Shown: piece after piece, positions 1-64,000 of the stretch
Layout of the letters: every line of letters begins with the position of its first letter
How positions within the stretch are numbered: position 1 is the stretch's first letter
Assembly (NCBI GenBank): GCA_030390025.1
Contig: CM059432.1
Span: forward strand, 60,204,001 to 60,268,000
Direction: 5' to 3'
DNA length: 64,000 nucleotides
From: Squalus acanthias
Taxonomy: Eukaryota
Program-made: the position numbers and the translations under genes
The notes under the pieces: generated by a model
Seen by the model: only the letters and a program-made list of their open reading frames with translations
Databases searched by the model: none
Told to the model about the DNA's origin: nothing

Positions 1-167
1 AGAGGAAGCTGGTGACAGAATGCATTTTCATCCCTTGCATTTACAATTCATGATTGACTGCAATAGCATATGTTGCTCATAGAGATTGACTTCTGATCAT
101 CTTCACAATAGGATGTGTCTGCTACCTCCAGACCTGATGTCTAACTCATGCCTTTACTCTCCCACAG

Positions 168-1164
168 GACCATCGAGAGCCTCCCTCCCCACTGTCCAGG
201 AGGAAGAGCCAGATGAATCCTCAGAGGAACCTGGAGCCTCTGAGGGAGCAGTGTCACCAGGACTCAGCGCACCCAGCACCAGCACAGATACGCACACCTC
301 GGGGGGGTCCTTCGCGACATACAGTAGTGTTGTCACCTGGTGTATCACAGATCACAAGTGAGCATCAGCAGATACTGGAGACAGCGACAGCAGTGGACAG
401 TCCTCGTCGGAGGTCGCAGGACTCTCCTAGCTCAGCTCATCTGCATGTAGATGCTGTCCCTCTGGGGCCATCCAGAAAGAGAGCGGTGCTGGAACTCCAG
501 GAACAAGTGCAGGAGTCTCTGACAGGGTTTGCATCCAGGGTAACTCCGAGTGTGGAGAGAATGGAGGAGTCCATCTCTAACATGAGCACTGCCTTTGTGG
601 AGGCAATGACGCATGAACGTGCCACTATGGAGAGGACATAAGTCGCCACACTCAACAGAGCATGGTGACTCTTCTAAATAGATGGTCTGCTATGGAGGAT
701 AGATGGGCATCTATTGAGGAGAGACACCAGAGGTACATGGACGTCCCCGTTATGAGGACTGTCAGTACTGAGATGGGTCCTCATGGCTCCACTGAGGTGC
801 AGCAGGTTGCTCTCCAGCCACTTGCTAGCAGTGAAGTGCAGGTGACCCATGAGAGGGATGTTGGTGGCAGACAACAAAGAAGTGTGGGCTCCTCTCCAAG
901 CGCTCACACGACCATGCCACTGCAGAGCCCTTGGTCAGAGCCCCAGGTTTCTCACCCACTGAGATGGCCGTATCAGCCCCTACAAAGCCGCAGGAAGAGC
1001 AGACTGTGGAGGAGCCCTCACAGGCTCCCAAACCCAGAGGACGCCCATCAAAGCTGTCTAAGCAGGCGCAGCACCAAAGTGAGCAAGGTGCCTCTACACC
1101 TGCTGAAGCCACAGGGGAAGCACCACGTAGGAGCACGCATAAGAAGAAGTTAAAGCACAAATAG
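168..1164 (+). pseudogene. Exon 3 of Harbinger Myb/SANT partner gene, frameshifted
   Basis: Acceptor TACTCTCCCACAG ends at 167. ORF pieces 86-361, 213-641, 662-1153 and 931-1164 each match parts of the continuous ORF 62276-63391. C-terminus has KPRGRPSK and a basic tail. Confidence 0.85.
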
Positions 1165-1439
1165 TCGCAAGGGTAGCCACTTGGGTGTTTTATAGCATTG
1201 TTAAATATCGAGTTTGTGATGCAATTAAACAAACGTGATGGCAAAGAGTTGAGGTTCTGGCCTATGTGTTCCGGGAAATGGAAGTTCAAGAGTGAGGGCT
1301 CAGGGCTAATTCCATTTATAATGATGGTGCGAGAGTGAGATGAAACCACCGTTTATTGGACAGATCATGCATGACGTTTTGAGAACGTCGGCCTTATATT
1401 CATCTCCATCTGCCAGCCACTTGTGTTTGAAGCGTAAGT

Positions 1440-3930
1440 TTACGCAAATCTGGCATGGATTAGTGCTTCCCTTGTCAAACGGCCAGCAATGTGGTCGAGT
1501 GCGGCTGCATTGGCCACATCCGGCCCTGCAACACGTGGCTCCCTGTCCTCCTCCTCATCCTCCTCCTCATGCTCCTCCTTGTCCTCCTCCTCGTCCTCCT
1601 CTTCTTCTTCCGAGGAGTGTGTGTGCTGAACCACTTGTTCGCCCGGCAGACCTAAGCCGCGCTGCTGTGCCATGTTGTGCAGGGCACAGCAGACCACGAT
1701 GATTCTGGACACCCTGGCTGGTGCATACTGCAGGGTTCCACCAGATCTGTCCAGGCATTGGAGGCGTATTTTGAGCAAGCCGATGGTTTGCGCGATGATG
1801 CTTCTGGTGGAAATGTGGCTCACATTGTAGTGCTCCTCAGCCTCGTTTGTTGGCCTCCTCATCGGTGTCATAAGCCACTTTTTCAGGGGATAGCCCTTGT
1901 CACCAAGTAGCCATCCGGAAAGTTGGTTTGGCGGATGGAAGAGCTGAGGCACAGTAGACTGGCGCAGGTTGAAGGAGTCATGGCAACTGCCAGGGTACTT
2001 AGCGCAAATATGCATGATGATCTTCCTGTGGTTACACACCAGCTGGACGTTCAGGGAGTGGAATGCCTTGCAGTTGACAAATACAGCTGGGTTGTGATAG
2101 GGGGCCCTAATGGCTACATGTGTGCAGTCTATGACACCCTGCACCATTGGCAAGCCTGCCATATTGGCAAAGCCAACCACACGCATGGTCAGACTTGGGC
2201 CATCCGTGGAGAAGTGGATGTAATTGTGCGCATTTGCAAAGAGGGCATTGGTGACCTGCGTGATGCAGGTGTGTGCGGCTGACTGGGAGATGTCGCTGAT
2301 GTCTGCAGCTGATCCCTGGAAGAAGCCCGAAGCAAAGAAGTTGAGTGTGGTGGTGACTTTGACAGCCACTGATAAGGAGTGTCCACATGCTCCTCTGGGC
2401 ACCAGGTGTTGGTGCAGCATTGTGCAGATGTCAGCGACTACATCTCTCGAAAGTCTCAGCCTCCTTTGGCACTGCTGCTCAGTCATGCTGAGGAAGCTGA
2501 TCCTCTACCTGTAAACCCTGTGTTGGGGGTATCTCCTGCAGCGAGGTGCAGCCCTGCGCTGATGCCCTCTGCTCGGTGCAGCATCAGGTGGGTGAGGAGG
2601 AGGTTGGCGTTCCTGGTGCTGGTGCTGCTGCTGCTGTTGTGGCTGGTTGTCTTCTTCTTCTTAGGCAGTCCCTCGGAACCGAGGATGACTTGCTTCCACA
2701 CTAAAAATGAGTTCTCAGGTGACTGATGAGTCCAATGCGGGACCTACAGTCTGTGTCACAGGTGTATGCAGATGGTGGTTGAAGGGGCAGGTGGGTGGGG
2801 TGCTTGGGTTGATGGGCACTCCTTCCACTGTTTGCGCTTGACTTCCGCTTGCTCCTGGCGAAGAGACTCGAGGTGTTCAGCGCCTTCCTGGATGATTCTC
2901 CTCCACTTTGTGCGGTCTTGGGCCAGGAATTCCCAGGTGTCGGTGGGGATGTTGCACTTTTTCAAGGAGGTTTTGAGGGTGTCCTTGAAGTGTTTCCTCT
3001 GCCCATCTGGGGCTCTCTTGCCGTGTCGGAGTTCCGCGTAAAGCACTTGTTTTGGGAGTCTCGTATCGCGCATGCGGACGATGTGGCCCATCCATCGGAG
3101 CTGATCGAGCGTGGTCAAAGCTTCGATGCTGGGGATGTTGGCCTGAGCGAGAACACTGACGTTGGTGCGTTTATCCTGCCAATGGATTTGCAGGATCTTG
3201 CGGAGGCAGCGTTGGTGGTACCTCTCCAGTGCTTTGAGCATACAGGAGGGCGGGTATCACTACTGCTCTGTAGACCATGAGTTTGGTGCTGGATTTGAAG
3301 TCCTGGTCTTCAAACACTCTCTTCCTCAGGCGACCAAAGGCTGCACTGGCACACTGAAGGCGGTGTTGGACTTCGTCATCGACGTCTGCCCTTGTTGACA
3401 GTAGGCTCCCGAGGTATGGAAAGTGGTCCACATTGTCCAAGGCCTCGTCTTCAATGACAGAGGATGGGACGACCTTGGATCTGGACTGGAGGTGACGGAG
3501 GTTGAACAGTTTCCCGTTTGTTCTGTAGATTAGCTCCACTCCAGCGGGGAGCTTACGGAGGGTGAGATGGAGCATTGCAGTCAGGAAGATCGAGAAGAGC
3601 GTTGGTGCGATGATACAGCCTTGTTTGACCCTGGTCCGTATGAATTGGGTCTGTGGTGGATCCGTTGGTCAGGATCACGGCTTGCATGTTGTCGTGAAGC
3701 AGGCGGAGGATGGTGACAAAAGTTTGAGGGCAGCCGAATTTGAGGAGGACACTCCATAATCCCTCATGGTTGACAGTGTCGAAGGCCTTTGTGAGGTCAA
3801 AGAAGGCCATGTACAGCGGTTGGTGCTGTTCCCTGCATTTCTCTGCTGGTGCTGCTGTTGTGGCTGGTTGTGGTGCTCCCACGGCTGCTCTTCCTCTGAA
3901 TCTGATGACCAGGATGAGAGGTTCCCATAC
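1440..3930 (-). pseudogene. Harbinger (HARBI1-like) DDE transposase, disabled; 348-aa open core at 1440-2486
   Basis: Motifs [43 protein letters not shown] and an acidic tail. Third catalytic E is A (IIAQTIG, codon 1791-1793). In-frame TAG just upstream of 2486, RTE insertion 2651-3849 in the N-terminal coding part, and a ~10-bp deletion near the start relative to the copy at ~63860. Confidence 0.9.
2651..3849 (-). mobile_element. RTE-clade (BovB-like) LINE, 5'-truncated, internally deleted
   Basis: Peptides FFDLTKAFDTV, FPYLGS, RWMGHIVRMRDTRLPKQVLYAEL; (AAG)n 3' tail. 22-bp TSD TGCTGCTGTTGTGGCTGGTTGT at 2629-2650 and 3850-3871. YADD region deleted relative to the 38.8-kb copy. Confidence 0.92.
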
Positions 3931-4468
3931 CATTGCTATAGATTTCAGTTGAGGCAAGAAGCTTGCAAACGCACAGTCAAAGTGGCCTGAGAATATTCCA
4001 ATCAGGTCACACTGCAGATGGCTGTCAGCTTGAACAGTCACAAGATCAGTAGAGTTGCAAAATCTTATCCCAAACCTCCAACAACAAAGTTGTGGCATTT
4101 GAATGTCAGCCATGTTGCAGGAGCACTTTTAAGCGGCTGCAGCAATTGACAACAAATCATGTCCTCGAGAAACCCGACTCATTGCAGCTGGCGTGTTTCT
4201 CAGACGACGGGAAACAGGAGCCAAAAGCACCAAAATCGGAATCGCATTTTAAAATAGGATTAGCAAGTCACTTAACAGGCTGTTAACTGCATTAACTGCC
4301 TTTCCCGCCATTTGGTGTCGGGTCAGTTCTGGAGCGGCTGACCCGACACTTACGAAATTAGCGTGGGGGCGGGTTGGAGGCGGGTTGGCAGCCAACCGTC
4401 AATTTTTCCGATTTTTGCTGCCGACCCGCCTCCAAACCCACCCTCTTAGGTCCATTAAAATCGAGCCT

Positions 4469-5283
4469 CTGGGGTCTGATACTCAGCTCAGGATCAGACA
4501 TGGTAACTTCAACAGTCTGGTTCAACCTGAGACAGTGGAGGTCATTTTGACCTAACCCACTTGGTGGGAAACTGATGGAGATGGTTCGGCTGTCTGTTTT
4601 ACACTCCGCCTGATTATACTTCCCATTGACTTTCTCCTGACGTTAATAGATATAAAATTGGGGCAGTGTGTAAAATGGGTGGCCAATCTGATCCCGTCAG
4701 TTACCCGCCAGGCAGGTTAGATTAAAATTGCCCCTAGTGGCCAGGAAAGGAAAGGAATCAGTGGCATGGTAGCGAGTTTGTGATGGCTTTGTTCTTCCCA
4801 AAGCTGTGCTACAGGAAGGTAATATTCATCCAAGACTAGGTTTTGGACAAGCAGTCTAACAACACAGAGGTAGTTGAGGGGCCAAAGGAAGTGGTAGAGA
4901 GGTAGACCTGAGTGTCATCAACATACATATGGAAGCTAACGTTGTGTCTGCTGAAGATGTTGCCAAAAAGCACATGTAAATGAGGAAGATGCTTTAGCTT
5001 CGTTCATATAGGTAGGAATGGAACCAGGCATGGGCAGTCTAATGAAGCTGGACAACGGCAATGAGGATGGTGTGGCTGACTGTGTCAAATGAAGTGGAGT
5101 CATCAAGGAGGATGAGGAATGATAATGCACCATGGTCACAGTCACAAAGAATGCCATTTGTGACTTTGGTTAGAGCCGTTTCAGCGCTGTAAGAAAAGTG
5201 GATGCCAGTTTGGAAGGTTACAAACATGGAGTTATGGTAGAGATGCGCATAGAGCTGGAAAGGGATGATACATTCAAAGATCT
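4469..5283 (-). mobile_element. Degraded L2-clade LINE RT fragment
   Basis: ORF 5039-5227 reads FQTGIHFSYSAETALTKVTNGIL...LILLDDSTSFDTVSHTIL, resembling the L2-type QSGF..HSTETAL..LLDLSAAFDT motif. Confidence 0.75.
4537..4734. mobile_element. Small palindromic Harbinger-type MITE inside the L2 fragment
   Basis: Imperfect TIRs GGAGGTCATTTTGACCTAACC / GGTTAGATTAAAATTGCCCC; CAG/TAG flanks. A right-half copy lies at about 5290-5354. Confidence 0.65.
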
Positions 5284-5390
5284 TCCCATCAAGGTCTGGT
5301 GGCTGATCTGACCCCGTAAGTTTCCCACAGGCGGGTTAGTTTAACATTGCCCCCTGATTTTAAATTGGCTGGTTATCTAAAGAGAGAAAA

Positions 5391-6946: not shown

Positions 6947-6974
6947 AGCATTTCAGTTTGTTCTCCCAGGTGTG

Positions 6975-10429: not shown

Positions 10430-11296
10430 CAAAAGCAAAATACTGCGGATGCTGGAAATCTGAAATAAAAACAGAAAATGCTGGAAATACTCAGCAGGTC
10501 AGGCAGCATCTGTGGAGAGAGAAACAGAGTTAATGGGGCAGAAATTAGGCTCGCCACGGGTGAGTACGCACTATGTACTCACCCGTGGTCGGAACGAAAG
10601 TGCCGGTTTCTTGCATGCACTGTGCATGCGCGGGAAACCGGCACTTCCGTTCCCCTGAAGGAAGGGGTTCAGAGGTCGAACACGCACGCCGGAGGGCCAG
10701 CGCGTTCGCCTCGCACGTCGTTTTTTTTTACAGGTTCCTCCGTGAGGGTAAGCACGGAGAAGATACACTTTTAAAAAGGAGGCGCAAGGCCTTCTTTTAA
10801 CAAGGTAAGTGTTGATTTTATTAAAATGTAAACATTTTTTTCACAGATTTATCTTTTTTAATTACTTTAAAGAAAGGTAAGTTTAGTTTTAACCCTGTTA
10901 AAAAGTGTAATTAATTTTTTCAAAAATTTTAATTTTTGTTTAAAATAGTTAATTAATGTAATTTATAGTTATTTTAAAAATGTGATTTAAAAAAAAATGT
11001 ATTTGTAGTTTTAGGGATGTTTTGGGGCCGATCTGTATTCATAGATTTGACAGACATTAAGAGATGGTGCAAGGCAAAAGGAGATGGTAATGGGACAAGT
11101 TAAGAAACAAAAGATGGCTCTAGATGAAGAGTAAAAAATTTAAAAAAAAATAATAATTTTGGAGCGGAGAATTAAAGTGACAGGCGACCGGAAGCTCAGG
11201 GGTTACCCTTACAGACTGAATGGAGGTGTTCCGCAAAGCGGTCACCCAATCTGCATTTTGGTCTCCCCAATGTAGAGGAGACCGCATCGTGAGCAG
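10430..11296 (-). mobile_element. Penelope-like retroelement fragment (GIY-YIG remnant and terminus), interrupted by a MITE
   Basis: 11165-11296 (-) reads CSRCGLLYIGETK/CRLGDRFAEHL..SV/PELPVACHFNS with frameshifts. Terminus 10430-10534 recurs at 38478-38540 and 41111-41187. Confidence 0.8.
10535..11030. mobile_element. Harbinger-like MITE, right end not found
   Basis: Starts GGGGCAGAAATT; internal palindromes (CCACGGGTGAGTAC..GTACTCACCCGTGG; TGCCGGTTTC..GAAACCGGCA) and AT-rich core shared with 22025-22782. Confidence 0.65.
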
Positions 11297-15907: not shown

Positions 15908-16798
15908 GGGGGAGAAATTCAGTATCGCCCCATTTGGGGCGCAATTATCGTCCGGGGGCAAAAATTAGCGCCTGGCGCTAATTATCGCCTCCGACTGCAA
16001 ACTTGGCTTTTATCGCCCCTGGAGGTGATTGGAGCGCTAAATCAGGTGCTACACACCTGTCTTAAGACGCAAAGGCCGAGGAGTGAGGCGCTACCTCAGA
16101 GCACTGGCGAAGCTCATGTGATGTCAGTCAGCAATGGAACACAGACACACTGGCGCCAGCCAGTTCTTAAAGGGGAGGGTCAATCTTGCTCTCCATCCAC
16201 ATCCTGCTCATTGCAGCCTTGAATCTCGGCCTGGAGAGACCTGTACATCAAACCTGTTGGAAAGAACAATGGAGAGGCCCAGGGAAAGAGCTCAGAGTGC
16301 AGCCCCATATTCTCTTCTAAATTGATGCAAGGAAGATCAAGTCAGAAAGAACCTGCAAAGTGCTGCTCAGTACCCAAAACTCCTCAACACAGCTTTGAAT
16401 ATCTCCTGCAGTCTCTCTCTCTTACGAGGAATGCGTGGTGCAAAAATTTCGCCAACAAAAAAAGGCAGGAAGCGGTCGCCTTTAAATAGCGCTCCCCCAG
16501 TCCCTTCCCGACTGCAAAACGCTCCCCTCAACCTGTCGTTGCTAGCGGCAGGCGGTAAGACAGGGGGCGCCATGCAATATCCGGTCCGGGGCGCTACTGG
16601 GGCATTGCACTCTCAACTGACGTCACGATCTGCCGGCGCAGGAGATCGTGGCGGTAGTGTTTAACGCCGCCGCAAAATGTCTAGTTAATTTCGTGAGCGG
16701 TGCAAACATTGCCGCGCACGGGCGCTAGTTGCTTTGTGCCCCATTAGCGCCCTCTTAAGGTGCTAACGGGAGGCGCAAACCAACTGAATTTTTCCCCC
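15908..16798. mobile_element. Harbinger MITE related to the 50404-54394 element (inverted)
   Basis: TIRs GGGGGAGAAATTCAG / CTGAATTTTTCCCCC; TSD TTT; both termini match the opposite termini of 50404-54394; TAGCGCC repeats. Confidence 0.9.
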
Positions 16799-20560: not shown

Positions 20561-21435
20561 GGCCGCGATTTTATCGGCACTGAGGGGGCTGGTTTGGAGG
20601 CGGGTGAAAGGTTAAAATTGTTTTGATTGACGGCGGGGTCCGATCCCGCCGTCAACCCGCCTCCAAACAATTTTCCTAAGTGTCGGGTCCCTGATTTGCG
20701 CATGGACCCGACACCTAGCGGCGGGAAGAGGATTAAAGCCAATTAACTGCCTGTTAACAGTAGTTAAGAGTAGTTGACAGGCAATATTTTAATTTTGCCG
20801 CTTCTGCCTCAGGCTTCCTGACATCCGGACACCACGCCAGGTAAATGTGGCGTGTTGTGAGTCTGCTGTAATGTTTCTGCATTGATGACAACTGCAGAAG
20901 TGGTGTGAAGGATTCAATGGTGCACTGGTGAGTCTCAGAGGTAAGAAAATGTTGGGAAAATCATTTTTAATGCATTTACACATTACTTTAGGTAACAAGT
21001 TTTGAAAACGATGTCTAGTGCCACCTCATTGGGAGAACCTCTCTCACCAGTGACAGATCGCTCCTGTCACCTCACCTGCAGCTGCCATCTGTTCCAGCCT
21101 ATGGAGGGAGTCACTGGAGAGACTGGGTGCAACAGCTCACCTTTGTACAGTGATTGTCAGTGTTTGCAGCACCTCAATGCTGTCAAACACTGAGAAATGA
21201 GCTGTGAAAAAAAAATTGTGCGTGGTCCCTTTAAGAAAACCGGCAGATGATGTGTCATCAAATGACGTCATCTGACCAACTTCCTCTTAATTGGCCGGCA
21301 AGCCCGCAGGGCGGGCTTAACAAGGTCAATCAACGTAAAATCACGTCCGTGGGCCGGATGCAGTTGGGGGCGGGACTGGAAGCCGGAAACCACCTGACCC
21401 GCTCCCAACCCGCATCCATTGACAAAATCTCGGCC
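20561..21435. mobile_element. Harbinger MITE
   Basis: TIRs GGCCGCGATTTTATC / GACAAAATCTCGGCC; perfect TSD ACT; internal homology to 38541-41095. Confidence 0.9.
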
Positions 21436-22024: not shown

Positions 22025-22782
22025 GGCCCATATTTTCCGATCGGCGGCTTCTTGCGTGCGGAGGCCTCCGATCTGGAAAAAATCTACGGACTTACCTGAG
22101 GGTTCCTGAGGTGCGTGTACTTCTGCTCCTGGGCCTCTCCAAACTCGAAATGTGCAGGGCTCACGTATCCCAGAGGCGCATGCGGTTCTCAAGCATCCTT
22201 GGGATCACATGGGCCATGGGGAGCCAACAGGAGAAGGGAATCTCCCTTCATACACTTGACAGAAAGACCTGTCAAATATATGAATGGAGATCACCCCAAA
22301 AACACAGTAGAACATTAAATACATTTTTAAAAAACCATCACATTTTTAAAATGAGGTGAAATTACAATGAATTAAATATTTTAAACAAAAATTTAATTTT
22401 TTGAAAAAAATAATTAAAGTTTTTTACAGGGCTAAAAATAAACTTACCTTTTTTAAAAGTATTTTTAAATTATAAATGAGTCAAAATAATTTTATTTTTA
22501 CTTTTTTCAACTCTTATCCTGGTAAAAGCAGGCCTTACGCTTTTACCAGGCGTAAGATTTCTAAGGGTTTTCTGCAGGCGGAGGTTCTCCAGAAAGCGGA
22601 ACTATCCGCCCGCAGAGGCCCTTCTCTAGGGCAGATGTCCGATCTGGCAAGAGCATTCTTGACAGATCGGAAATACCGGTTTTCAGCGCATGCGCTTCGC
22701 ATGCCTGAAACCGGCATTTCCGAGGTCCCTACGGGTGTGTACACAGCTCGTACACACCAGTAGGCATCGGAATATACGGCCC
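22025..22782. mobile_element. Harbinger MITE
   Basis: TIRs GGCCCATATTTTCCGAT / ATCGGAATATACGGCCC; TSD ATT; GCGCATGCG motifs; AT-rich core. Confidence 0.85.
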
Positions 22783-36295: not shown

Positions 36296-37074
36296 ACATC
36301 TAAAGCACAGTTGTTTTAAAGAGAGAAATATGTTAAACAAGAACCATTAAAGTCTTTTACAATTGTCAAAGAGCAAGAGGTTCCAGTCATGCTTTTGGGT
36401 CTTTTCTACCCTTTTTTACTCTTGATTTTTTGGCTTTGGATCTTAAATCACTTTCTTAGATGAGTGCCAATTCCTAGAATTACAGAGAATATACAATACA
36501 GAAACAGACCATTCGGCCCAACCAGTCCATACTGGGGTTTATGCTCCAATCAAGCCTCCTCCCATCCTTCCTCATCTATCCCTATCAGCATAGCCCTCTA
36601 TTCCCTTCTCCCTCATATGCTTGTCTAGCTTCCTCTTAGCTGCATCTATACCATTCGCCTCAACTACTCCCTGTGGTAGAGAGTTTTACATTCCCACCAC
36701 TCTCTGGGTGAAGAAGTTTCTTCTGAATCCCCTATTTGAAATCTTATATTGATGGCTTCCAGTTTTGTTCTTCCCCACAAGTGGAAACACACACTGGCCT
36801 AGAAATTCGATGTTGCAGCGCCAGTCGTTAAGGCCGGTTTTGTAGAAAAAATGGCACCATCTCGCTACTGCCCGCTTCTAGCACGGACACGGCGTCCGCC
36901 ATTTTGGTAAGGGCCATAGCGCTGTCATTAAATAAGTAGATTGTGATGTCAATCGGCAGGCAATGCCTGATTTGACACCACGACTGCTAATTTGGACAAT
37001 CTCGCTCTCCACAATGTCGGGTCCTAAGTATGTACAGAAAAGCGTGTGCGAAGCAGCCCTACAGAGACGCTGCC

Positions 37075-38290
37075 ATCTAGAACATCTAGAAACCAAAAAT
37101 ATAATAATGAATAGTCAGCATAGATTTCAAAAGAGAAAGTCTTGCTTGACCAACCTTACTGAATTTTTTGAAGAGGTAACAGAGAGAGTAGACAATGGTA
37201 ATGCAGTAGATGTAATTTATCTGGATTTTCAAAAGGCCTTCGATAAGGTACCCCATAATAGACTGATGAACAAGGTCATAGAATGCGGAGTCAGGGGACA
37301 AGTAGCAGAATGGATTGCTGGCTGGCTTCAGGACAGAAAGCAGAGAGTAGGAGTAAAGGGTAGCTATTCACAGTGGCAGAAGTTGGGTAGTGGTGTTCCA
37401 CAAAGATCAGTGCTGGGACCACTGCTGTTCACAATTTACATTAACTATTTAGACTTTGGAATCAAAAATACAATTTCTAAATTCGCGGAGGACACCAAAT
37501 TGGGGGGGGATAGTCAATACTGAGGAGGACTGCATCAAATTACAGGAGGACATGAATAAACTTGCAGAATGGGCATATAATTGGCAAATGAAGTTCAACA
37601 CAGATAAATGTGAGGTATTACATTTTGGTAGGAAGACTAGGGAGGTCACTTATTACTTGGAGGGTGCGAGTCTAGGTGGGGTAGAGGAACAAAGGGATCT
37701 CGGAGTACAAATACACAAATCACTAAAAGTTGCGACACAGGTTAGCAAGGCCATAAAAAAAAGCAAACCAAGCACTAGGGTTTATTTCTAGAGGTATAGA
37801 ATTGAAAAGTAGGGAGCAGAGAAGATTTACAAGAATGATACCAGAAATGTGAGGGTATACATATCAGGAAAGGATGAACAGGCTGGGTCTCTTTTCTCTT
37901 GAAAAAAGAAGGCTGAGAGGTGACCTAATAGAGGTCTTTAAAATTATGAAATGTTTTGATAGAGTAGATACAGAGAGAGTGTTTCCACTTGTGGGGAAGA
38001 GCATAACTAGAGGCCATCAATATAAGATAATCACCAAGAAATCCAATAGGGAATTCAGAAGAAACTTCTTTACCCAAAAAGTGGTGAGAACGTGGAACTC
38101 ACTACCACAGGGAGTGGTTGAAGTGAATATTATAAATGCATTTAAGGGGAGGCTAGACAAGCATATGAGGAAAAAGGGAATAGAGGGTTATGCTGATAGA
38201 TTTAGATGAAGAAAGATGGGAGGGGGCTCGTGTGGAGCATAAATGCTGGCATGGACTGGTTGGGCCGAATGGCCTGTTTCTGTAATACTA
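37075..38290 (+). mobile_element. 5'-truncated CR1 LINE inside Harbinger
   Basis: KSCLTNL, KAFDKVPH, WNSLP; 3' UTR GGGCCGAATGGCCTGTTTCTG. Confidence 0.9.
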
Positions 38291-38540
38291 TGTCAGTGCA
38301 ACTTAAAGGGACACACACATCTTTCAGGTAAGTTTGGATTTCAACTTTTGGACTTTTAAAAATATCTTATTGAAATAGTGGTTTGCTGCAATAGATTTAA
38401 AAAGTTGTTAAAGTGTGCAGGGAGTGCTGCTGGATGCTTGCAAGGCTTTGGATGGTAAAGGAACACCACTGAGAAGACAGAAAATGCTGGAAATACTGAG
38501 CAAGTCAGGCAGCATCCGTGGAGAGAGAAACAGACTTAAC

Positions 38541-41095
38541 GGGGGCGATTTTCCCAGCCCTGGGGAGGCGGGTATGGAGGCGGGACTGCCGGGAAAATGG
38601 CAGAATCTGGGAGCGGGTACCAATCCCACCCACAACCCGCCTCCGTGCCATCTTCCCAGGAGGTGGGTACCCAACCCACGCTGGGTCCCGTCTCCTCGAG
38701 GCGGGAAGGGGATTAATGCCAATTAACTCTCTGTTAACAGGTAGATAGATTTAGATGAAGAAAGTAGTTAACACTACTGGCGCGAATTCATGAACTAATT
38801 TCTCTTATCTGGAAGGAGGAGAGCATGCCAGGGGATCTCAGAGACGCCGTAATTGTGACCATCTTCAAGAAAGGTGACAAGTCTGATTGCGGTAATTACA
38901 GAGGAGTTTCCCTGCTGTCTGCCACAGGGAAAGTCATCGCAAGAATCCCCCTCAATCGCCTTCTCCCAGTGGCTGAAGAGCTCCTCCCAGAGTCGCAATG
39001 TGGATTCTGCCCACTAAGGGGCACAATGGACATGATCTTCACCGCGCGCCAATTACAAGAGAAATGCAGGGAACAGCGCCAACCGCTGTACATGGCCTTC
39101 TTTGACCTCACAAAGGCCTTTGACACTGTCAACCATGAGGGATTATGACGTGTCCTCCTCAAATTCGGCTGCCCTCAAAAGTTTGTCACCATCCTATGCC
39201 TGCTTCACGATGACATGCAAGCCGTGATCCTGACCAACGGTTCCACCACAGACCCAATTCATCTACAGACCGGGGTCAAGCAAGGCTGTGTCACTGCACC
39301 AACGCTCTTCTCGATCTTCCTTGCTGCAGTGCTCCATCTCACCCTCAGTAAGCTCCCCGCTGGAGTGGAGCTAATTTACAGAACAAACGGGAAACTGTTC
39401 AACCTCCGTCGCCTCCAGTCCAGATCCAAGGTCGTCCCTTCCTCTGTCGTCGAATTACAGTATGCAGACGACGCTTGCGTCTGCGCACACTTGGAGGTCG
39501 AACTCCAAACCATCGTTAACACCTTCACCGAAGCATACGAGAGCATGGGCCTTACACTAAACATCCATAAGACAAAGATCTTCTACCAACCTGCCCCCGC
39601 CACACAGTACTGCCCCCCGATTATCAAAATCCATGACAAGGCCTTGGACAATGTGGACCACTTTCCATACCTCGGGAGCCTACTGTCAACAAGGACAGAC
39701 GTCGATGACGAAGTCCAACACCGCCTTCAGTGTGCCAGTGCAGCCTTCGGTCGCCTGAGGAAGAGAGTGCTTGAAGACCAGGACCTCAAACCCGGCACCA
39801 AGCTCATGGTCTACAGAGCAGTAGTAATACCCGCCCTCCTGTATGCCTCAGAGACATGGACCATGTACAGCAGGCACCTCAAAGCACTGGAGAGGTACCA
39901 CCAATGCTGCCTCTGCAAGATCCTGCAAATCCATTGGCAGGATAGGCGCACCAACGTCAGTGTTCTCGCTCAGGCCAACATCGAAGCTTTGACCACGCTC
40001 GATCAGCTCTGATGGATGGGTCACATCGTCCGCATGCCCGATACGAGACTCCCAAAACGAGTGCTCTACTCAGAGCCCCGACACAGCAAGAGAGCCCCAG
40101 GTGGGCAGAGGAAACGCTTCAAGGACACCCTCAAAGCCTCCTTGAAAAAGTGCAATATCCCCACCAGCACCTGGGAATCCCTGGCCCAAGACCGTACAAA
40201 GTGGAGGAGAAGCATCCGGGAAGGCGCCGAATACCTCGAGTCTCTTCGCCGAGAGCAAGCGGAAGCCAAGTGCAAACAGCGGAAGGAGCGCACGTCAACC
40301 CAAGCACCCCACCCACCCGCCCCTTCAACCACCGTCTGCCCCACCTGTGACAGAGACTGTAGGTCCTGCATTGGACTCATCAGTCACCTGATAACTCATT
40401 TTTAATGTGGAAGCAAGTCATCTTCAGTTCCGAGGGACTGCCTAAGAAGAAAAGTTAACAGGCAGTTTTTTGGCTAATCCCTATTTTGAGCCCTAAAGTG
40501 TGGGCTCCCTGACGGCTCTGAACCTCACCTGGGTCAGCGAGGCGAGCCGTGGGTCTGCGGGGGTCGGAGGGGCCAAAATGTCCGGAATGCAGGTGAGTGA
40601 TGAGTGCAAGTGTGGAGAGGTAAGTGTGTGAGGCGAGTCTAAGGTGTTTTAATAAGATTACTTACCTTTGCTTCTTCCTCCAGGCTCATCCCTTTAGGCT
40701 GCAGAGCTGCCTCATCTCACCGGCAGAGAAAGCAGAATGGCCGCGGCATTCTTAAAAGCAGCAGCCTTCTGCTTTCTGCTCAGGAACGCTTTCTAAGTGA
40801 GTCTTGAGTACAAGGACTCACCAAAGAACAGAGATTGTCAGTGTTTGACAGCTTCTCAAAGCTGTCGAACGATGACAATTCATCTGTCAAAAATTTTTGA
40901 CAGATGAAACGTCATACGCTGACGTTCTCTGTCACCGGCTTTCCCTTAATTGGCCGGCTAAGCCTGCTGGGCGGGCTTAACAAGGCCAATCAAGGGAAAA
41001 TAGCATGGGTTGGCCAGACGTCGATGGAGGCGAGACTAAAACCCGACAAGCAGCTTTCCTGCCTCCATCACGTTCCCATTGATAAAATCACCCCC
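38541..41095. mobile_element. Harbinger MITE carrying an RTE
   Basis: TIRs GGGGGCGATTTT / AAAATCACCCCC; perfect TSD AAC; homologous to 20561-21435. Confidence 0.9.
38774..40452 (+). mobile_element. RTE-clade (BovB-like) LINE, 5'-truncated
   Basis: GNYRGVSLLS, LPESQCGF, KAFDTV, GVKQGC, LQYADD, C-terminal CPTC..H...H zinc knuckle; AAG tail; TSD AGTTAACA at 38766-38773 / 40453-40460; two in-frame stops. Confidence 0.93.
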
Positions 41096-43579
41096 AACGT
41101 CTCAGATTGAGATGCTGCCTGACCTGCTGAGTATTTCCAGCATTTTCTGCTTTTATTTCACATTTCCAGCATCTGCAGTATTTTGCCTCTAAGAAGACCA
41201 CTTCCTCACAAACCTGAGGGGGGGCACATGAAGATGAAGCAGAGGCAGCAAAGGGGATAAGCTGCTTGCAGAGGGAAGGGGAAGAAGCAGAAGAGGAAGA
41301 CGCAGAAGAGGAGGAAGCGGAAGGAAGGATGCAGCCCAGACAGCCCCTTTCTGACCGGGATATCCAGGATGGAATCATCCGCCTGCGGTACCAATTCCCC
41401 TTTCAACATTTGTCCTACACCTTACCTTCCCTCTGTTATTGACCATCACAGCGTCCTCTTGGCCACAATGCTGAAATAAAAGCCACCACAAAGCAAACTT
41501 TCCAATCTAACTTTAGGCATTTATGCATCCAATACGACATCAAGAAATCAACTAATTACCCTTGTGCATTCCCTTAGTGACTGTCTTGTGTGTGCCTTTG
41601 CCTATCCTACTGATGTCATGCAGTGCTACCCCAGTGGTTGCAGCATGGCTGGTGGAAGGCTGCTGACTTTCAGTGGGGGACACGGCAGATGGCCTTGAAG
41701 GATGACCTCGAGGAGCTGGTGGTTGGGAGTGTGAAATCGAGTGACAGTGTTTCTTTTTCTTCTTCTTCTTCTTCACTCTCCTCTCCCTCTTCTTGGTCAA
41801 CCACTGGCTGGGCAGGCTGGATTTCTTGGGTGTGTGAAATGAGGAAGGTACAAGGGTAGAGCTCAGCCATGCCCCTGCCAAGAATGGCCAGCACTGTCTC
41901 CTCCAAAGGTGTGAGGTGAAGCAAGGAATGGGAGGTGTGCATTGTGTTTGGTAAAGATTGTTGGTAGGTGAGTGATGGCGGGAAGGCAGGGTTGTGCAAT
42001 GAGCAGTGTGTGAGGCTAATCGTGTAGTTGGTAGTAGGCGGCTTTAGAAGATGCAATCACTGACCTTGACCACTGGTCTGAGGTCAAGAAACTTCTTTGG
42101 GCACTGAAGCCAGGTCCTGGGGGCGACACTGCTGGCAGTGATGGCCTTGGTGATCTGGTCCCACATCCTTCTTTCTGGAGGGACTCCTATTCCCCCTGTG
42201 GTTAGAGGACCTCTAATGCAGTGTTGACCCCCTACACAAAGTTGACGTGCTGCGTGCGAGACCCTGGGTGCCCCTTCCCTGGCTTGTTGAGCCATTTGTG
42301 TTAGTGCTGAAACACGTTTACCATTTTTTTACATGCAGAAGGCAGTTCAGCTTTAAGAGCTGTAGACTGCTATTTTGGAATTATTATTATTTTTAATGGT
42401 TTTTTTTTAAGAGTGCAGTTGAGCTCTAAGGGCTAAAGACTGCCTATTTTTAGATGATTTTTATTTTTTCATTTTAGAAGGTAGTTCCCCTTTAAAGGGC
42501 TTGACACTGCTTTCTAAAGTGACAGGTTAACTTTAAGACAATGCTGCCTTGCTCAATGGACACTATGGCCATGCTACATTGGGCCTCCTGCTGAGACAAC
42601 CACTCGAATCAGCGTGTTACACAGTAGATTTTGCACTCCAATCATTTAAATTAGAAGGCAGCACCAAAATACCGGGTGGCTGTTAACCTTGACCTGCGGT
42701 GGCACCACCCATTTTCGGGCTTAATTGAATTTCTAGGCCTCTGTGTCTACTCTACCAAAATATTTCATAATTTTAAAGACCTCTATTAGGTCACCCCTCA
42801 GCCTTCTCTTTTCAAGAGAAAAGAGACTCAGCCTGTTCATCCTTTCCTGATAGGTATAACCTTGCAGTTCTGGTATCATTCTTTTGAATTTTTTTGCACC
42901 CTCTCCAGTGCCTCGATATCCTTTTTATAATATGGCGACCAGAACTACACACAGTACTCCAAGTGTGGTCTAACCAAGGTTTGATACAAGTTTAGCATAA
43001 CTTCTCTACTTTTCAATTCTATAATTCTCAATTGCCATGGTCTTTGAGAGTATTGTCACTAACCTCCCTTTCTAGGTAAAATGATCAGTAATGCGCCCAA
43101 AATAACGAACAGAAAACCCTGGTCTGTCAATTATTTTTAAGTTACTGGAATTATTCTTATGATGCCACATGATCTATTATATCAGACTTAATCTAGTTTT
43201 AACATAAACAATAAACAAATGAATTTGTAGTAATATATAATATTTATATATATTTATTGTAGAAATTTTGAAGGGAAAATACTAAAAGGTTGCAAATCTA
43301 AAGGCTACGCTGTATCTTTAAAAATATGCACAGAGCACTCCTCCCCTTGTCTCCTTGTGAGCTGTGGGAACTAACTAAAATCTATCTGCCCCTCAATAAA
43401 GATCTCTGTTTGTTCAATTCCATTCCAGTCAGAGGACTGTTGTACATTTGCTCCTTTTTATAGCTCTTGAGCTGTTTCCAGTACTCATTAGAAATTCAAA
43501 TAGCCAACCTAGACATTCACCACAGCATCATAAGTAAGTAGCACGGAGTCCAGTTCGATGGAGTACTGCTTCTACAGAA

Positions 43580-49700: not shown

Positions 49701-50887
49701 ATTCCCATTGGGAATCCCATTACTGCTACTCAGAAGATCTTACTTTGGGTGGGGGAAAAGAAATTCCCTGTGGTTTCATAAGCCCTCAGCGGGGCTGTCA
49801 GAGGTAAGGCCAGCTCTGTCCAGGGTAAAGGAAAGGAAGTGCTCCAAAAGCTCTCTTTTATTTCCAATAATTACTTTTAAAGCTTCTGCAGGCTACAAGG
49901 TATAAACTAAAGTACTACAGTATTGGCTGATATTTGCAACAGGTACACCCTTTTTTATTTTGTCATGAACTTATCTTGGTGTATTGGGAGCATACATCAT
50001 GGGTTTTGGATACTCCTACGCAGTTTCTCCTTATTTTAAAATATTATAATGAGTTTCCAGCAACATCGGCGTATACATTGCCTAAAGGTTCCAGACCGGA
50101 TCAGAAACGGCAGTATAGCCATTACGGGATGGAAACCGAGCATAAAGGGATCCATCCCAATTTGTAGGGCTCAGTGAGTCAAATAATATTACAGCACTAA
50201 AGAATCACGATCAATGGAGAGCATATTCGAGGCCACAGTGTTGAACTCACCAGCTAAAGCAATTGTAGAATTATTGAAAGTCTTAAAAGGCTAACAGAAA
50301 GGAATATGGGTTTACAGGCTACTCCTGGTAATTCAAGGTTGTTTTTTCTGAAAAAATATTCAATTTATCCCCCAAAAATTGATTAAGCAATTTAGTGCTT
50401 AAAGGGGGAGAAATTCACTACCTTAGCGCCTCCCGTTAGTGCCTCCGGGGGGCGCTAACGGGTTGCTACCGGCTTTGCGACCGAGCGCGACAATAGTACC
50501 GACACCCGCAAAATTGACGGGGAGGTTTGCGCCGGCGGTAACCACTAGCGCCACAATCTCCTGCGCTCGGAGATCGTGACGTCATCCGCTCCGGTAGCGC
50601 CCCGGCTGAGAAATTCACTCTCACCCCCTGCCTGAGCGCCTGCCGTTAGCAATGACAGGTAAAGGAGGCGGTATGCAGTCGGATAAGCGCTGGAGAAGCT
50701 CTATATAAAGGCGTCAACATCCGTTTTTTTTTTAGTCGGCAAAGAATGCTGCCTTGTCAGTTTGACATAGGCACACAGGCGTTTTGAGCGATTTCAGCGT
50801 TTTTCACTTGAAGGAGTCTTCTGTCTCAGCAAAATTATTCAGTTTCAGTTCGGTGAGATTTTAAAGTGCAACATTTCCATACTTTAA

Positions 50888-52050
50888 TGGGAGCTGTACT
50901 GGTACTGGACCTCGCACTCCGGCGTCAACGTCGGAGGCAGTGGAGGCAGAGAGAAAGATTGCCAAATGTGGCCAGAGGAAGGAAGACCAAGAGGGCTCTT
51001 AGCAGGAGGCCTTACCCTCCCAGGGTATTCTGGCAGCATTTCTCCTACATCAATTTCAGTGAGGAACAATGTCTTAGAAGGCTCCGCTTCACCAAGGATG
51101 TGGTCACAGAGCTCTGCCACCTCCTGCAGCCAGACCTCGAGCCTCACATCAGGAGCACCACGGCTCTCTCAGTGCCAGTCAAGGTCACCGTCGCCCTCAA
51201 TTTCTACACCAGTGGATCCTTCCAGTGTGCAACAGGAGACATATCTAATATATCGCAGTTCACCATCCATTGCTGCATCCGCGAGGTCACAGATGCCCTG
51301 TACTGAAGGAGAAGGGACTACATTTCCTTCCCCATGACCAGAGAGAAGCAACGCAAGTGTGCATGTGGCTTTGCCAAGATAGCGGGCTTCCCCATGGTGC
51401 AGGGCACCATTGACTGCACCCACATCGCTTTGCGGGCACCACATAACAATCCTGAGGTATTCCGAAACCGCAAAGGCTACCACTCACTTCATGTGCAGTT
51501 GGTGTGCGACCACACACAGCGAATCCTCACTGTCAATGCCCGCTATCATGGCAGCAGCCACGATGCCTTCATCCTGCACCAACTCTGTTCCAGCCACCAC
51601 ATGAAGCTTGCGGCTGGCTGCTGGGAGACAAGGGCTATCCGCTCTCCACCTGGTTCATGACTTCCCTCCGCAACCCCAACACTCGTGCCCAGCACTCATA
51701 CAATGAGAGCCATTCTGCCACCAGGAACATCATTGAGCAGACAATCGGAGTGCTCAAGCAACGGTTCCGCTGCCTTGACCGCTCGGGAGGAGCCCTCCTG
51801 TACTCGGCTGAGTGGGTGTCCCTTTTCGTCGTCGTCTGCTGCATGCTGCACAACTTGGCCATCATGAGGGCGCAGCCATTGCCACCAGGCACCACCTCAG
51901 AAGGAGGAAGAGGGAGACGAGGAGGATGAGGACGAGGAGGAGGAGGAGGATGAAAAGGAGCTCGAACAACAGCAACGGAGGAACTAGCCACTCCATCGGC
52001 CTTGTGTAAGGGCGGTCCGTGACCGCCTCATCAGACTTCAGTTCCAATGA
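50888..52050 (+). pseudogene. Harbinger DDE transposase
   Basis: [38 protein letters not shown]; all three acidic residues present, but stop at 51304-51306 and frameshifts at about 51580 and 51900. Confidence 0.92.
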
Positions 52051-52215
52051 TTTCGAGGACACTTCTCGGTTGCTCAGCCCATCCCCACCAATCCATCAAT
52101 TTCTCATTCCATGCCACACCCCAAAGCTGAAATGAGACACATCACCATTTCTGCAACATTGCAATAATAAATTTATCCAAAATCAGTAACCCCATATATA
52201 CAACAACAAAATGAA

Positions 52216-54055
52216 CTAATCACCCTTGTGCAAACCCTTACTTGCCCTCTTTACAGAGCCTTTTCGTAATCTGCAGCTCCTACGTAGTGTCCCCCCAATG
52301 GCTGCAGCAGGGATTGTGGAAGGCTGCTGAGTGTCGGTGCCAGAGACTACAGGCCCTCGACCAGCTCTGGGCCTGGAAGGCCTGGCTGTAGACTGCGACA
52401 CCTCAGGATGGGCGATGGCAGTCTGGGCTGGCTGGATGACAGGCAGCGACAACTGCAATGGCGGAGTGGCAGTGGTGGGATCAGGAATGCTGTCATCCTG
52501 AGAGAGGACAGCACATTCCTGCTTCACTGACTCACTGCCACTCCCCCGGGCCAGCACCTCAGCATCCCTACCAATCTGCTGGAGCACAGATTGCTGGCCT
52601 GCTGTGACACCGTGAGATCCCCAGTGGACTGTGGTGGACCCAGCCATGATGGCAGCAGTCAGAGCTTGCGTCGCATCAAGCTGAGACATCATGAGAGCAG
52701 TCTGAGATTCGATGCAACCAACCATTGTCTGCATTACAGCACTAAGACGTTGCGTCGCTTCCTCCTGTGCTGCAATGGAAGCTGCCACATCGCCCATGAC
52801 AAGTGTCATGAGGTCTGGATCCGCATGATCTCTCTGGGAGTCCACCATCCTCTGCAGAGTGGAAATGATGAGCTCCATGGCATGCGCAGAGCCTTGTGCA
52901 ATATTGGAGGGGTACTCCTCCACGCTACTTACCATTGCCGAGAGGCTCTCGGGCACCCTTGCCATTGCACCTATCATCTCGAAGTGCATGGCCATCACCC
53001 TTCTTGTGAACGCCTCCCCATCGAGGTCCTCATCTGAGTCCTGTGCAGCAGAACTCGCCCTCCGGGGAGCTGGCTCCCGAGCTACCCTTTCCCCCTGGCC
53101 TTGCTGCAGCCCGCTCGTCCCCGGTGCATCACCCAGTGCAGACCCCTCTACTAAACTTGCCTTTAAATATCGCATAGTGCCAGCGTCTGAGGTAGTGCCT
53201 GCGGGTGAGAGATGCAGTGATGCGGGTCTTTGCTCCTCTCCCTCTTCTCCTTCCTCACTCTCAGTGGGAGGCTCAGGGACAGGCTGGTCATCTGGTTGCT
53301 GATTCTCTGAAAGCACAAAGGCACAAGACTCGCGTTAAGGTGAGGGCAGTGGGGTAGGAGGGGAGCAAGGAATGCAGACAGTATAATGAGCTGAAAAGTG
53401 GGAAAGGCTTGTGGTGTGAGGGGGAAGTGGAATGAGAGAAGGAGAGGGGATGAACATACTGTTGTTGCCCCCCAAGGGGGTCGGCGTTGCCAACGACCAC
53501 GACGCCCACCACCTGATGCCCAATGAGTCACAGCACTCGCTCCTCCAGGTCTGAAAGCTGCTGGAGCTGCGCATCACCATCTTGGCCTGCAAGAGAAATG
53601 AATGTGTGTGAGTCAGAGTCCAGCTATGTGTTTGGGAGATATGCCTGCCGTAGTTGAATAGCTGTGATTGTAGGCAAGGCATGAGATGTGGATGTGAGTT
53701 TGAGTAGGTGCAGATGCTTGGTGGGTGAGTGGTGGGGGTGTGGTGGTTTGTGCAGTGTGTACAGACTGAGGTTCAGCTGCTGGTAAGCAGGACCTGTTGA
53801 AGCATGTACTCACCTTGACCACCCGAGTGAGGTCGTTGAATTTCTTCCAGCACTGTGTCAGGCTGTGTATGGCCACATTACTGGCCGAGAGCTCCTGGGC
53901 CACTTTCCTCCACATTGCCCTGAAGACCTGGGGCAATGGCCTCCTTCCAGTGTCCGGGAACAGCACTGCCCTCCTTCGCTCCACTCCCGCGACCAATGCC
54001 TCAATGCCTCATCCGTGAAACGACGAGCTCTCTCCCTGGGAGTGGGATCAGCCAT
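52216..54055 (-). pseudogene. Three-exon Myb/SANT partner gene (exons about 54055-53814, 53586-53460, 53306-52216)
   Basis: RARRFTDEAL..WRKVAQEL..QCWKKFNDLTRVVK|GTGAGT; canonical splice sites; exon 3 open for about 360 aa; exon 1 frameshifted and exon 2 degraded. Confidence 0.85.
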
Positions 54056-54499
54056 CACGATCAGGGGATTGAGTTCCTTGCAGGTCACTTTCACAGCCAG
54101 CAATGCTGATAATTAGGATCTGCACAATGACGTACCCTCCCCTTTTAGAGCTGGAAGGAGCCAGTGTGAAGGATCATTCCCGATTGCATTGTACCTGAAA
54201 TTCATTATCGATCTGCTGGTAGCACCCCTATAGCGCCCTACTGAGGTCATTAGCGCTTGATTTAGTGCTCCAGGTCTTTCCTGGTGCGCTAACAGCCAAT
54301 TTAGGAGACGCTCAGCATCCTTAGCGCCTAGCGCTACTTTTTCATCATTTCAAAAATTAGCATCCCAAATGGGGCGATACCGAATTTCTCCCCCATAATG
54401 TCTAATTAACAGATAATTCAAATTTAGCAACTTTGAATTAATTTAATTTCACACCATTGGCCACAGTGTCTCTCTCAAAAACAGGGAGGCAGGGCTGCT

Positions 54500-59030: not shown

Positions 59031-59218
59031 GTCAGCTAATTTAAAGGCTTCAGGGATACTGGGGGGAGGGGGGCTGGAAGAAAACGACAGTGCAGGTGGC
59101 CTAAAATGGATCATGAAGGGAGGCCTGGAAAATACCAGTAATGGAAATTAGGAAATTTGAGTGGAATGGGTGAAAAAAAAGATGGGGAATGGAGGGAGCC
59201 AAAACTGGATGTTCTGTT

Positions 59219-61209: not shown

Positions 61210-64000
61210 GGGCTCGATTTTAATTCCTGAGGCGGGTTGGAGTCGGGTTGCACGGCAGGCGGGTTCAGGAGCCGCTTCCGGCGGGAACAGCTGCAGAGTT
61301 GCGATTTTTATTTAAGTACCTTGTTAATTTCATGGAGGCGCACTGGCCGGTCCAATGAGTGGGATCGGGTCGGCTGGCCATCTCTGATGACTTCACAATA
61401 GCAGCTCCTTTTAAAGCTGCCTTTCAGCCTGAGCCTTTCCATTGTGGTTTCCTGCACTTCTGTTCACAGCTATGATTTCTTCCAGAGGCAAGGCAGCTCC
61501 TCGGTTTAATGAAGAGTCCCTCCAAGTTCTTGTCAATTCTGTCAGAGGGCGCAGGGAGATTCTCTTCCCTCCTGATGGCCGGAGGAAGCCTCCTCAGCAG
61601 ACCAAGGCATCCTGGCTGCGCATTGCTCAGGAGGTGAGCGCAAGGTGCATCTATACACGCTAATGGATCCAGTGCCGCAAAAGGTTTAATGATCTTGTGA
61701 GAACATCAAAAGTGAGTATCCTATCTCACTTGCCTTCACTCTGCTTCCCTTCTCTTCTCATCACCTGCACTCTGCTTTGGAAGCCTCCTCCTTCACATCC
61801 CACCTTACTCTTAGTTCCCTTGCACCCTTTCCTATCCATCTCTGTCTCTGCACTGAATCACTTCAGCATCCAGCCTATGCATCCTTTAGACTCGCTGTCA
61901 CTGTCATGCAGTGACAACAACTAACAATGCACAGGGAGCTACCTTCCTCTTCGCACCTTACCCCATCTTCGTCTCAAATCTTCTATGGTAGGGATTAATC
62001 ACACTCACTCCATCACTGTGGCTGAAACACCGCTTGTGTCCCTCCTTGCAGGAAAAGATAGCCCACAATAAGAGGGAGAGAGCAATGACTGGAGGAGGAA
62101 CAGCTTCCCTTGCAACATTGACCAGTGCTGAGGAGGCAGCGAACGAGATTGTTGGAGGTGGCGAGGACCTGGAAGTGGGTGATGGAGAGACGGGCACACT
62201 AGAGGAAGCTGGTGACATAATAGATTTTCATCCCTCTCAGAAAGCAATGCAATATGATGTTCATAGAAAATCACTTTGTATCATCTGCTCAAAAGGATGT
62301 GTCTGCTACATCAATATCAGATGTCTAATTCAAGCCTTTACTCTCCCACCGGATCATCGAGCGCCCCCCTCCCCACGATCCAGGACGAAGACCCGGACAT
62401 CTCCTCAGAGGAACCTGAAGACTCTGAGGGACCAGCATCACCAGGACTCAGTGCACCCAGCACCAGCGCAGCAACGCACACCTCGGTGGGGCCCTCGCGA
62501 GTTAGTGTAGTGTTGCCACCTGGTCTATCACAGCGCAAAAGTGAGACAGCGACAGCAGTGGAGGGTCCTCATCAGAGGTCGCAGGGCTCTCCTAGCTCTG
62601 CTGAGCTGCATGCAGACGCTGTGCCTCTGGGGCCATCCAGAAAAAGAGCGGTTCGTGAAATACAGGAACAAGTGCAGGTGTCTCTGGAAGAGTTTGCCTC
62701 CAGGGTTAGTGCGAGTGTGGAGAGAATGGAGGAGTCCATCTCTAACATCAGCACTGCCGTGGTGGTGGCAATGGCGCATGACTGCACCACCATGGATAGG
62801 ATGGCAATCTCCGTGGAAAGGATGGCTACCTCAGTGGAAAGGATGGCTATGGCCATGGAGGAAATAAGTCACCAGAGTCAGGAAAACATGGTGACTGTTC
62901 AGAATAGACTGACATCTCTGGAGGAGCGATGGGCAGCTATTAAGCAGAGAGACCAGAGCTTCATGGACGTCCTTTTGCGGAGGACTGCCAGTGCAGATAC
63001 GGGTCCTCATGGCCCCCCTGAAGTGCAGCAAGGTGCTCTCCTGCCACTTGCCAGCACTGAGGTGCGGCTGACCCATGAGAAGGATGTTGTTGGCAGGACA
63101 GAAGGAAGTGTGGGTTCCTCTCAAAGCACTCGCATGACAATGCCACTATGGAGCCCTCGGTCAGAGACCCACTTTGCAGAGACAACTGAGATGGCCGTTT
63201 CAGCCCCTGCACAGCCGCAGGAAGAGCAGACTGTTGAAGAGCCCTCCCAGGCTCCCAAACCCAGAGGACGCCCGCCAAAGGCGTCTAAGCAGGCGCAGCA
63301 TCCTAGTCAGCAAGGTGCCTCTACATCTGCTGAAGCCACAGGGGAAGCACCATGTAGAAGCACGCGTAAGAGAAAAAGTAAGCACCTATAGTCACAAGGG
63401 GACTTGGGTGATGTTTCTTTTTTTTCTGACTGTTGTTGGTATATTTTGTCATGTGTTAAAGAGAAATTATGGCAAACAGTTGATTGTGTGGCCTATGTGT
63501 TCTGGGAAGTGGCAAAAGTGCATTGAGGGTTCAGGGCGACTTACATTTGTAATGCTGATGGTAACAGTGATAGGAAATAAGAGACTATAGCAGAGATGAA
63601 GTATGATGTTGGACAAGTGCAATTACAGAGCCATATGGTGGCCACCTATGGTCGAAGAGTAAGCGTATGGTAGTGTGGCATGGCAGTGTGCATACCCTGG
63701 TTGATGGGCAGCAGTGAACTGGAGGGATGCTGCATTGGTCACAACAGGGCATGCAAGGCTCCCCTCGTCCTCGTCCTACTCCTCTTCCCAGGAAGATATG
63801 TGGTGAACCACGTGGCTTCTACTCCCCCGATTATGAGGACCAGGATGAGAGGGCATAAATGTTTCCCATCCCCTTGCTATAGATTTCAATTGAGGTAACA
63901 ATCTTGCAAGCGCACAGTCGAAGTGGCCTGAAATAATTCCATTCATGACACACTGCAGATGGGTGTCAGCTTGAACAGTCAGAAGATCAGTAGATGTGCA
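61210..64000. mobile_element. PIF/Harbinger family A copy 2, transposase core deleted (right end outside window)
   Basis: Left TIR GGGCTCGATTTTAAT; Myb gene (+); 63660-63812 matches 1430-1634 and 63812-64000 matches 3878-4058. Confidence 0.92.
61472..63391 (+). pseudogene. Three-exon Myb/SANT partner gene (61472-61711, 62052-62211, 62352-63391; 479 codons if repaired)
   Basis: APRFNEESL..SWLRIAQEV..R*WIQCRKRFNDLVRTSK|GTGAGT; exon 2 HNKRERAMTGGG; splice phases 0 and 1 join in frame. Lesions: TAA 61661-61663 and exon-3 acceptor CG instead of AG (AG in copy 1). Confidence 0.9.

Follow-up and report, generated by a model that had tools for sequence, protein, structure and literature searches.

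The PIF/Harbinger superfamily is marked by an extended target. According to Hancock et al. (2010; PMC2836001), this hallmark measures 9 bp in plants and 15 bp in vertebrates. For Harbinger3_DR of zebrafish the target AAACACCWGGTCTTT is cited in PMC3016246 and PMC2836001. Concerning the cleavage of the element, yeast assays led Gilbert et al. (2015; PMC4561436) to propose that staggered cuts at the TSDs release mPing. According to Liu et al. (2024; PMC11254759), the donor TTA/TAA arrives together with mPing at Cas9 breaks, and free transposition of mPing gives intact TSDs. Within the superfamily Han et al. (2015; PMC4482050) defined the PHIS groups NuwaI (CWG), Pangu (ANT), and PIF/Harbinger (TWA) by the composition of their TSDs. 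Outside of it, piggyBac carries its TSD (TTAA) as a 5' overhang and is excised seamlessly (PMC7351741).

The window analysed here, a stretch of 64,000 nt of the 3.7 Gb genome of Squalus acanthias, contains nine TIR-bounded elements whose ends read GGSSNNKAWWTT. These are PIF/Harbinger-type elements and their MITEs, and the flanks and triplets that the first-pass annotation had quoted for all nine sites match the window sequence. The family letters A to I are labels coined in the present analysis. The window starts with the right part of a family G element (1..4468, no strand assigned), which begins 982 bases before the window, has the TSD ATG/CTG and the right half-site GGGTCT at 4472–4477, and contains a LINE piece. 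On its minus strand a Harbinger-type transposase frame with a DDE_Tnp_4 match (PF13359, E 8.7e-33) extends over 1440..2504. The homologous family G element at the other end of the window (61210..64000, plus strand, TSD CAC/AGG) has its right end at 64397, outside the window. A truncated nonautonomous family H copy (10535..11053, plus strand) lies with the left flank AGAGTT-AAT within a very abundant host repeat and aligns with an intact copy over its first 522 bases only. Three MITEs are found on the plus strand, namely a family B copy of 891 bp (15908..16798, TSD TTT/TTT), a family A copy of 875 bp (20561..21435, TSD ACT/ACT, left half-site AGACAC), and a family C copy of 758 bp (22025..22782) with the TSD ATT/ATT, AWT being the triplet preferred by the family.

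The family D element (36796..42739, plus strand, TSD ACT/TCT) carries nested insertions, among them the family E element (38541..41095, plus strand, TSD AAC/AAC), which is situated in the same abundant host repeat as the copy at 10535 and contains a LINE piece. The left junction of the family D element is present in contigs of three sequencing runs from other organisms, and the insertion is therefore old; no empty allele was seen in the sequencing-run contigs, in which the results were swamped by repeats. The family F element (50404..54394, plus strand, 3991 bp, TSD AAA/ATA) has an autonomous-type layout. Its transposase core with DDE_Tnp_4 matches lies in two frames at 51307..51929 on the plus strand (E 2.3e-12 and 3e-17), and a probable Myb/SANT-like exon is found at 53613..54008 on the minus strand. 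In the Pfam search family F alone gave a Myb/SANT match, which was weak and below the cut-off (PF13837, E 0.015; PF13873, E 0.098). A PDB sequence search with the transposase returned zero relatives.

For genome-wide comparison the terminal 80 bases of eight window elements were used as flank-free queries and the best 30 loci each were taken, supplemented by 20 tiles of 10 kb and further genome stretches. This search yields best-matching copies only, and the sample is thus biased to copies near the window's own. Element ends were gathered by motif, clustered, and retained where their distal flanks were unrelated, whereas ends with similar flanks were collapsed. Excluded from the logos were 44 ends obtained via one query carrying 21 flank bases (which were also kept out of the discordance counts), 158 ends fetched by LINE-site patterns, and 34 ends with a TIR not starting with GG. 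Pooling and removal of duplicates left 459 junctions from the flank-free searches, which fall into eight families or end-groups. For the TSD counts, only copies within 15% of the median length were used; of these 197 copies, 39 were flank-selected and taken out, leaving 158 pairs.

In all eight groups the flanks at both element ends contain the half-site A-R-A-(S)-W-Y at positions -9 to -4. Read towards the element, it consists mostly of A at -9, a purine at -8, A at -7 (69–76%), A/T at -5, and C/T at -4. As both ends of each family give the same flank picture, the target is palindromic. When a matrix built without the family in question was applied to each of the 8 groups and compared with the group's own distal flank, p values between 2.4e-13 and 1.5e-47 were obtained, and 11 of the 15 half-sites in the window score above the 95th percentile of the window background. 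The flank motif in the eight groups is therefore real, and it is in register with the zebrafish Harbinger3_DR target. The spaced palindromic flank that the first-pass annotation had supposed to be common to these families is borne out in all 8 groups (p <= 2e-13 as rounded), and the logos contain the information outside the central 3 bp that was looked for, 2.1–4.7 bits per half-site across the families. Its literal AGACAC gives way to the degenerate consensus ARA(S)WY, the exact hexamer being present at 9 of 493 family-wise junctions. Nor does the site at 22025 fit poorly, as had been stated; its left flank scores 3.8, which is a good fit, and the flank taste of family C is A-A-A-N-A-T. The details vary between families: position -8 is G and position -4 is C in A, E, G, and I, whereas C and H have A and T there, respectively. 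Harbinger3_DR shares the 15-bp palindrome with its 3-bp centre, and on the present matrix its half-sites AAACAC and AAAGAC reach 5.7 and 5.4, the maximum being 5.8. The flank rule observed here is another instance of the known superfamily trait.

The centre follows a different logic in different families. In A, B/F, D, E, G, and I it contains 0.6–1.3 bits of information, is rich in A/T, and avoids G in the first and C in the last position; 16 distinct triplets occur among the 29 concordant TSD pairs of A/E/I and 16 among the 26 pairs of B/F. In family C (22025) and family H (10535) the centre reaches 3.3 and 2.2 bits, respectively, which is at least the half-site information, and AWT is found in 24 of 36 concordant pairs. 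A free centre, as had been claimed, thus applies roughly to the six former groups and fails for C and H. The claim that a TWA consensus is absent was correct, as TWA makes up 5 of the 91 concordant pairs. CWG, the centre of Harbinger3_DR, makes up none of the 91; here the centres are loose and A/T-rich or AWT, and the flanks are a degenerate preference.

These features bear on the classification of the elements. The broad traits of PIF/Harbinger are present, namely a DDE_Tnp_4 transposase in TIR elements (G and F), a 3-bp TSD, and an extended palindromic target. The copies of A, B, C, E, and H are noncoding, and their link to the superfamily consists of TIR type and target only. With the PHIS groups of Han et al. 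(2015) the elements share the DDE transposase, the 3-bp TSD, and TIRs starting with GG. The TIR starts with GGG at ends of B, E, F, G, H, and I and with GGC in A, D, and one end of C; GGG is the usual NuwaI trait. By their TSDs the elements belong neither to PIF/Harbinger in the sense of Han et al. (TWA) nor to NuwaI (CWG), as the counts given above show. C and H may come near the ANT centre of the Pangu type, 24 of their 36 concordant pairs being AWT; the other families do not. The six remaining groups fit none of the TSD groups, and very similar TIR types share flanks and differ in the centre rule. Grouping PHIS elements by the TSD triplet cuts across families with one flank code.

The mismatched TSDs AAA/ATA and ACT/TCT had been listed in the first-pass annotation without comment. 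As a class, such pairs are a more interesting signal than the flanks. Among the 158 full-length copies not chosen by flank, the 3-bp TSDs are identical in 91 and differ in 67, with 38.3 expected, and at least two mismatches are found in 29 pairs, with 5.7 expected; the expectation was derived from the divergence of each copy at internal A/T columns. Three of the 29 are slips in the terminal G/C run as judged by eye, and the excess of the 26 left has p 4e-10. Discordance shows no age trend (Spearman rho with divergence 0.04). In the youngest divergence bin 12 of 38 pairs are discordant against 3.9 expected, and in the three younger bins multi-base discordance is about 20-fold above expectation (22 against 1.1), compared with about fivefold overall. 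The oldest bin is without excess (21 discordant, 21.5 expected), the majority-based divergence overstating age there. C and H have 18 pairs that differ by one base and include an AWT triplet; in 12 of them AAT stands against ATT (p 3e-6). A requirement for identical TSDs in annotation would drop about 40% of the copies sampled.

At host repeats the triplet of the empty site is known, and the empty sites confirm the 3-bp length of the TSD. The LINE site at window positions 61184–61209 is a strong multi-family hot spot with about 1000 filled junctions per side and with elements of varied types and lengths; 1356 exact empty copies were counted with a pattern whose stringency differs from that of the filled counts. 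By eye, 90 of the first 100 empty copies have the centre AAA, and two are multi-base variants. The 10 non-AAA centres are nearly all transversions, two of them double, and some may have been left behind by the excision of copies carrying a foreign triplet. The triplet departs from AAA at 17 of 100 filled left junctions (seven with two or three changes). Right junctions, again counted by eye, depart from it in 14 of 100 (three multi-base), and a control triplet from those rows is changed in 7 of 100. At this site single-base changes are only roughly twice as frequent as in the controls, with 17 (left) and 14 (right) per 100 rows against 10 (empty sites) and 7 (control triplet). Multi-base replacements occur in 10 of 188 LINE junctions, whereas two changes are found in 18 of 2838 overlapping flank triplets (p 3e-6). 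Both junctions are available for 94 copies, of which 70 are unaltered, 16 have a change on the left only, seven on the right only, and one on both sides with the same triplet. This one-sidedness is not significant alone, with about 1.4 double cases expected and one seen. Thirty of 100 copies at the LINE site have no clean right junction in the DNA fetched.

The second host repeat (window 10515–10534 and 38521–38540) is represented by 46,507 exact empty copies and about 1300 Harbinger left ends at one triplet, AAC or AAT (AAY). Its empty sites were all sampled within the initial 8 Mb of a single contig and seem younger, and they are therefore a weak control. Among unselected H-type copies at this site, 27 (of 30 loci) have both junctions; in 10 of them one junction has a foreign triplet, in none do both, and two of the ten read AAC/ATT. 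The two sites are used differently by the element types, with 970 GATTTT-dominated and seven H-type (AWT) ends at the LINE site (centre AAA) against 954 and 350 ends, respectively, at the AAY site, although the search patterns were slightly different and the sites differ in their flanks too, so that the centre is one of several variables in this comparison. ATT accounts for 7 of 16 one-sided foreign triplets of the H-type and for none of 28 of the GATTTT-type, in a comparison that spans two host sites, that includes four H-type copies fetched because their left side was altered, and whose p of 0.001 was computed with six instead of seven H-type cases. The first base is changed in 3 of 16 H-type and 15 of 23 GATTTT-type cases (p 0.008). 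At one site the ATT contrast is weak (6 against 0 of 100 rows, p 0.03; one-sided pairs, p 0.26). A same-site family contrast with p 1e-4 was rejected as stated, since a host subfamily whose centre is CAT exaggerated it; this subfamily also accounts for part of the CAT/CAC excess at the AAY site. Both sides are altered, differently, in the host-site copies L199 and L513, and the nonhost triplets of L375, L500, L503, and L506 are concordant host variants. At host-repeat sites replacement is usually one-sided, with intact flanks and the same repeat continuing without change in length.

Taken together, we think it probable, though by no means assured, that these families combine a shared palindrome with a family-specific centre and that one TSD copy is often foreign because the old TSD is carried along as a 5' overhang. 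The step from the pattern to an overhang is one that we infer. A symmetric transpososome would read both half-sites of a shared 15-bp target, ARA(S)WY-nnn-RW(S)TYT, the centre of which is specific to the family. On excision the nontransferred strand would be cut three bases outside the TIR, and the excised element would carry its old TSD as a 3-base 5' overhang, which at the new site would face the three unpaired bases of the target. Usually the overhang would be trimmed and the gap filled from the target, giving a perfect TSD; at about 1/8 to 1/5 of the junctions it would be ligated and fixed wholly or partly, leaving a discordant TSD. The junctions with a replaced triplet number 24 plus one concordant case of 188 at the LINE site and 10 of 54 for the H-type, both counts including neutral background. 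In families with a fixed TSD the overhang would pair and leave no trace, whereas in those with a loose centre it would mismatch and thereby expose the carry-over. Such carry-over predicts confinement to three bases, independence of age, and family-typical triplets, all as seen. We lean with modest confidence towards the reading that in Harbingers with a loose centre one new junction routinely receives three bases from the site occupied before, so that a discordant TSD is a fossil of the donor locus. Against it stand the partial confounding of the family contrast by different host sites, the two multi-base variants per 100 empty LINE sites together with an oldest bin without excess, and the fact that recombination or deletion also makes discordant pairs, as at window 61210. 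The change from AAT to ATT is a single step, which weakens the family signature, and a donor locus was identified for no copy.

Under the same target rule the discordance could arise at integration if the 3-base gaps are filled with errors or without a template, an explanation that we regard as unlikely but worth keeping in mind. It fits the age independence, the confinement to three bases, partial changes such as ATC/AAC, and the doubly altered L199 and L513, and it accounts for some apparent 2-bp duplications. These make up 10 of the 29 multi-mismatch pairs (chance 18.5%, p 0.03), but 3 of the 10 are G/C-run slips, and with seven of 29 left and about five by chance a 2-bp-duplication class was not established. 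What error-prone fill-in does not predict are the middle-base swaps AAT/ATT in the AWT families (12/18) and the changes from AAC to ATT (L435, L461) as against first-base changes in the loose families; it explains everything but the family signature. Once inserted, an element might also acquire a junction from another copy, the route being gene conversion, recombination, or deletions made by the transposase between the many similar copies. This is improbable to us as a general cause, even though an imported triplet would be family-typical too, the element at 61210 has the junctions of two sites, many copies have no matching second junction, and unique-site flanks come without an empty-site comparison. 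Import should grow with age and disturb the flanks, in contrast to the rho of 0.04 and to host-repeat flanks that continue the same repeat at unchanged length. Later mutation and pre-existing host variants, with the known flank preference as the only real effect, form the least credible account, to which we assign very little weight. Single-base changes do occur in 7–10 of 100 controls, A/T exchanges make up a large share of the element substitutions, four of the copies carry the concordant host variants named above, and the old insertion at 36796 may have mutated. A multi-base excess of this size with intact host-site flanks is not accounted for in this manner, and the mutation-only reading of discordant TSDs is largely refuted.

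Several described systems are close to these elements. mPing, Ping, Pong, and maize PIF resemble the present case in the extended target (9 bp in plants) and, under the proposed mechanism, in the staggered cut and the TSD-derived overhangs; their centre is TWA, whereas here loose centres occur and natural insertions often show replacement on one side. piggyBac differs by its unrelated transposase family, its strict TTAA, and a hairpin intermediate, while the overhang signature seen here is indirect and genomic. Work by Li and coworkers from 2013 reportedly found that piggyBac causes mutations at noncanonical sites. In the titles and opening lines of abstracts of the openly accessible literature we found neither discordant Harbinger TSDs at natural insertions nor family-specific centres on a shared flank with quantified one-sided TSD replacement. 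If donor carry-over holds, natural insertions provide genomic evidence for a Harbinger cleavage geometry inferred so far from mPing assays, and precise excision of copies with a foreign triplet would leave point changes at the target. With the same modest confidence we take it that target choice is built from two separable modules, one for the flanks, conserved from zebrafish to Squalus acanthias, and one for the centre. Families with equal flanks and different centres make a natural pair for assigning flank and centre recognition to individual proteins, a question of relevance to Harbinger-based gene-delivery tools.

On its left the element at 61210 joins the LINE hot-spot site, with CAC as the triplet, whereas its right junction reads AGG followed by GTCTCC and the right flank does not continue the left host repeat. 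As the right junction comes from an unrelated site, the element is probably a recombinant or deletion product, and CAC was rejected as a donor triplet for the same reason. In a second copy, L050, the left and right ends likewise sit in different target sites, and both cases point to deletion or recombination between copies. Some further copies have unusual ends. In L039, L179, L185, L186, L267, and L276 the left junction reads xAT and the right one AT, as if one TIR-adjacent base were missing, and the host tail repeat points to a genuine loss of one base in L039 and L186. The family H copies L280 and L264 have longer duplicated flank segments instead of or beside a plain 3-bp TSD. The flanks of L069, a copy of 218 bp, are exact inverted copies of each other over at least 25 bases, which points to a fold-back or an assembly artefact.
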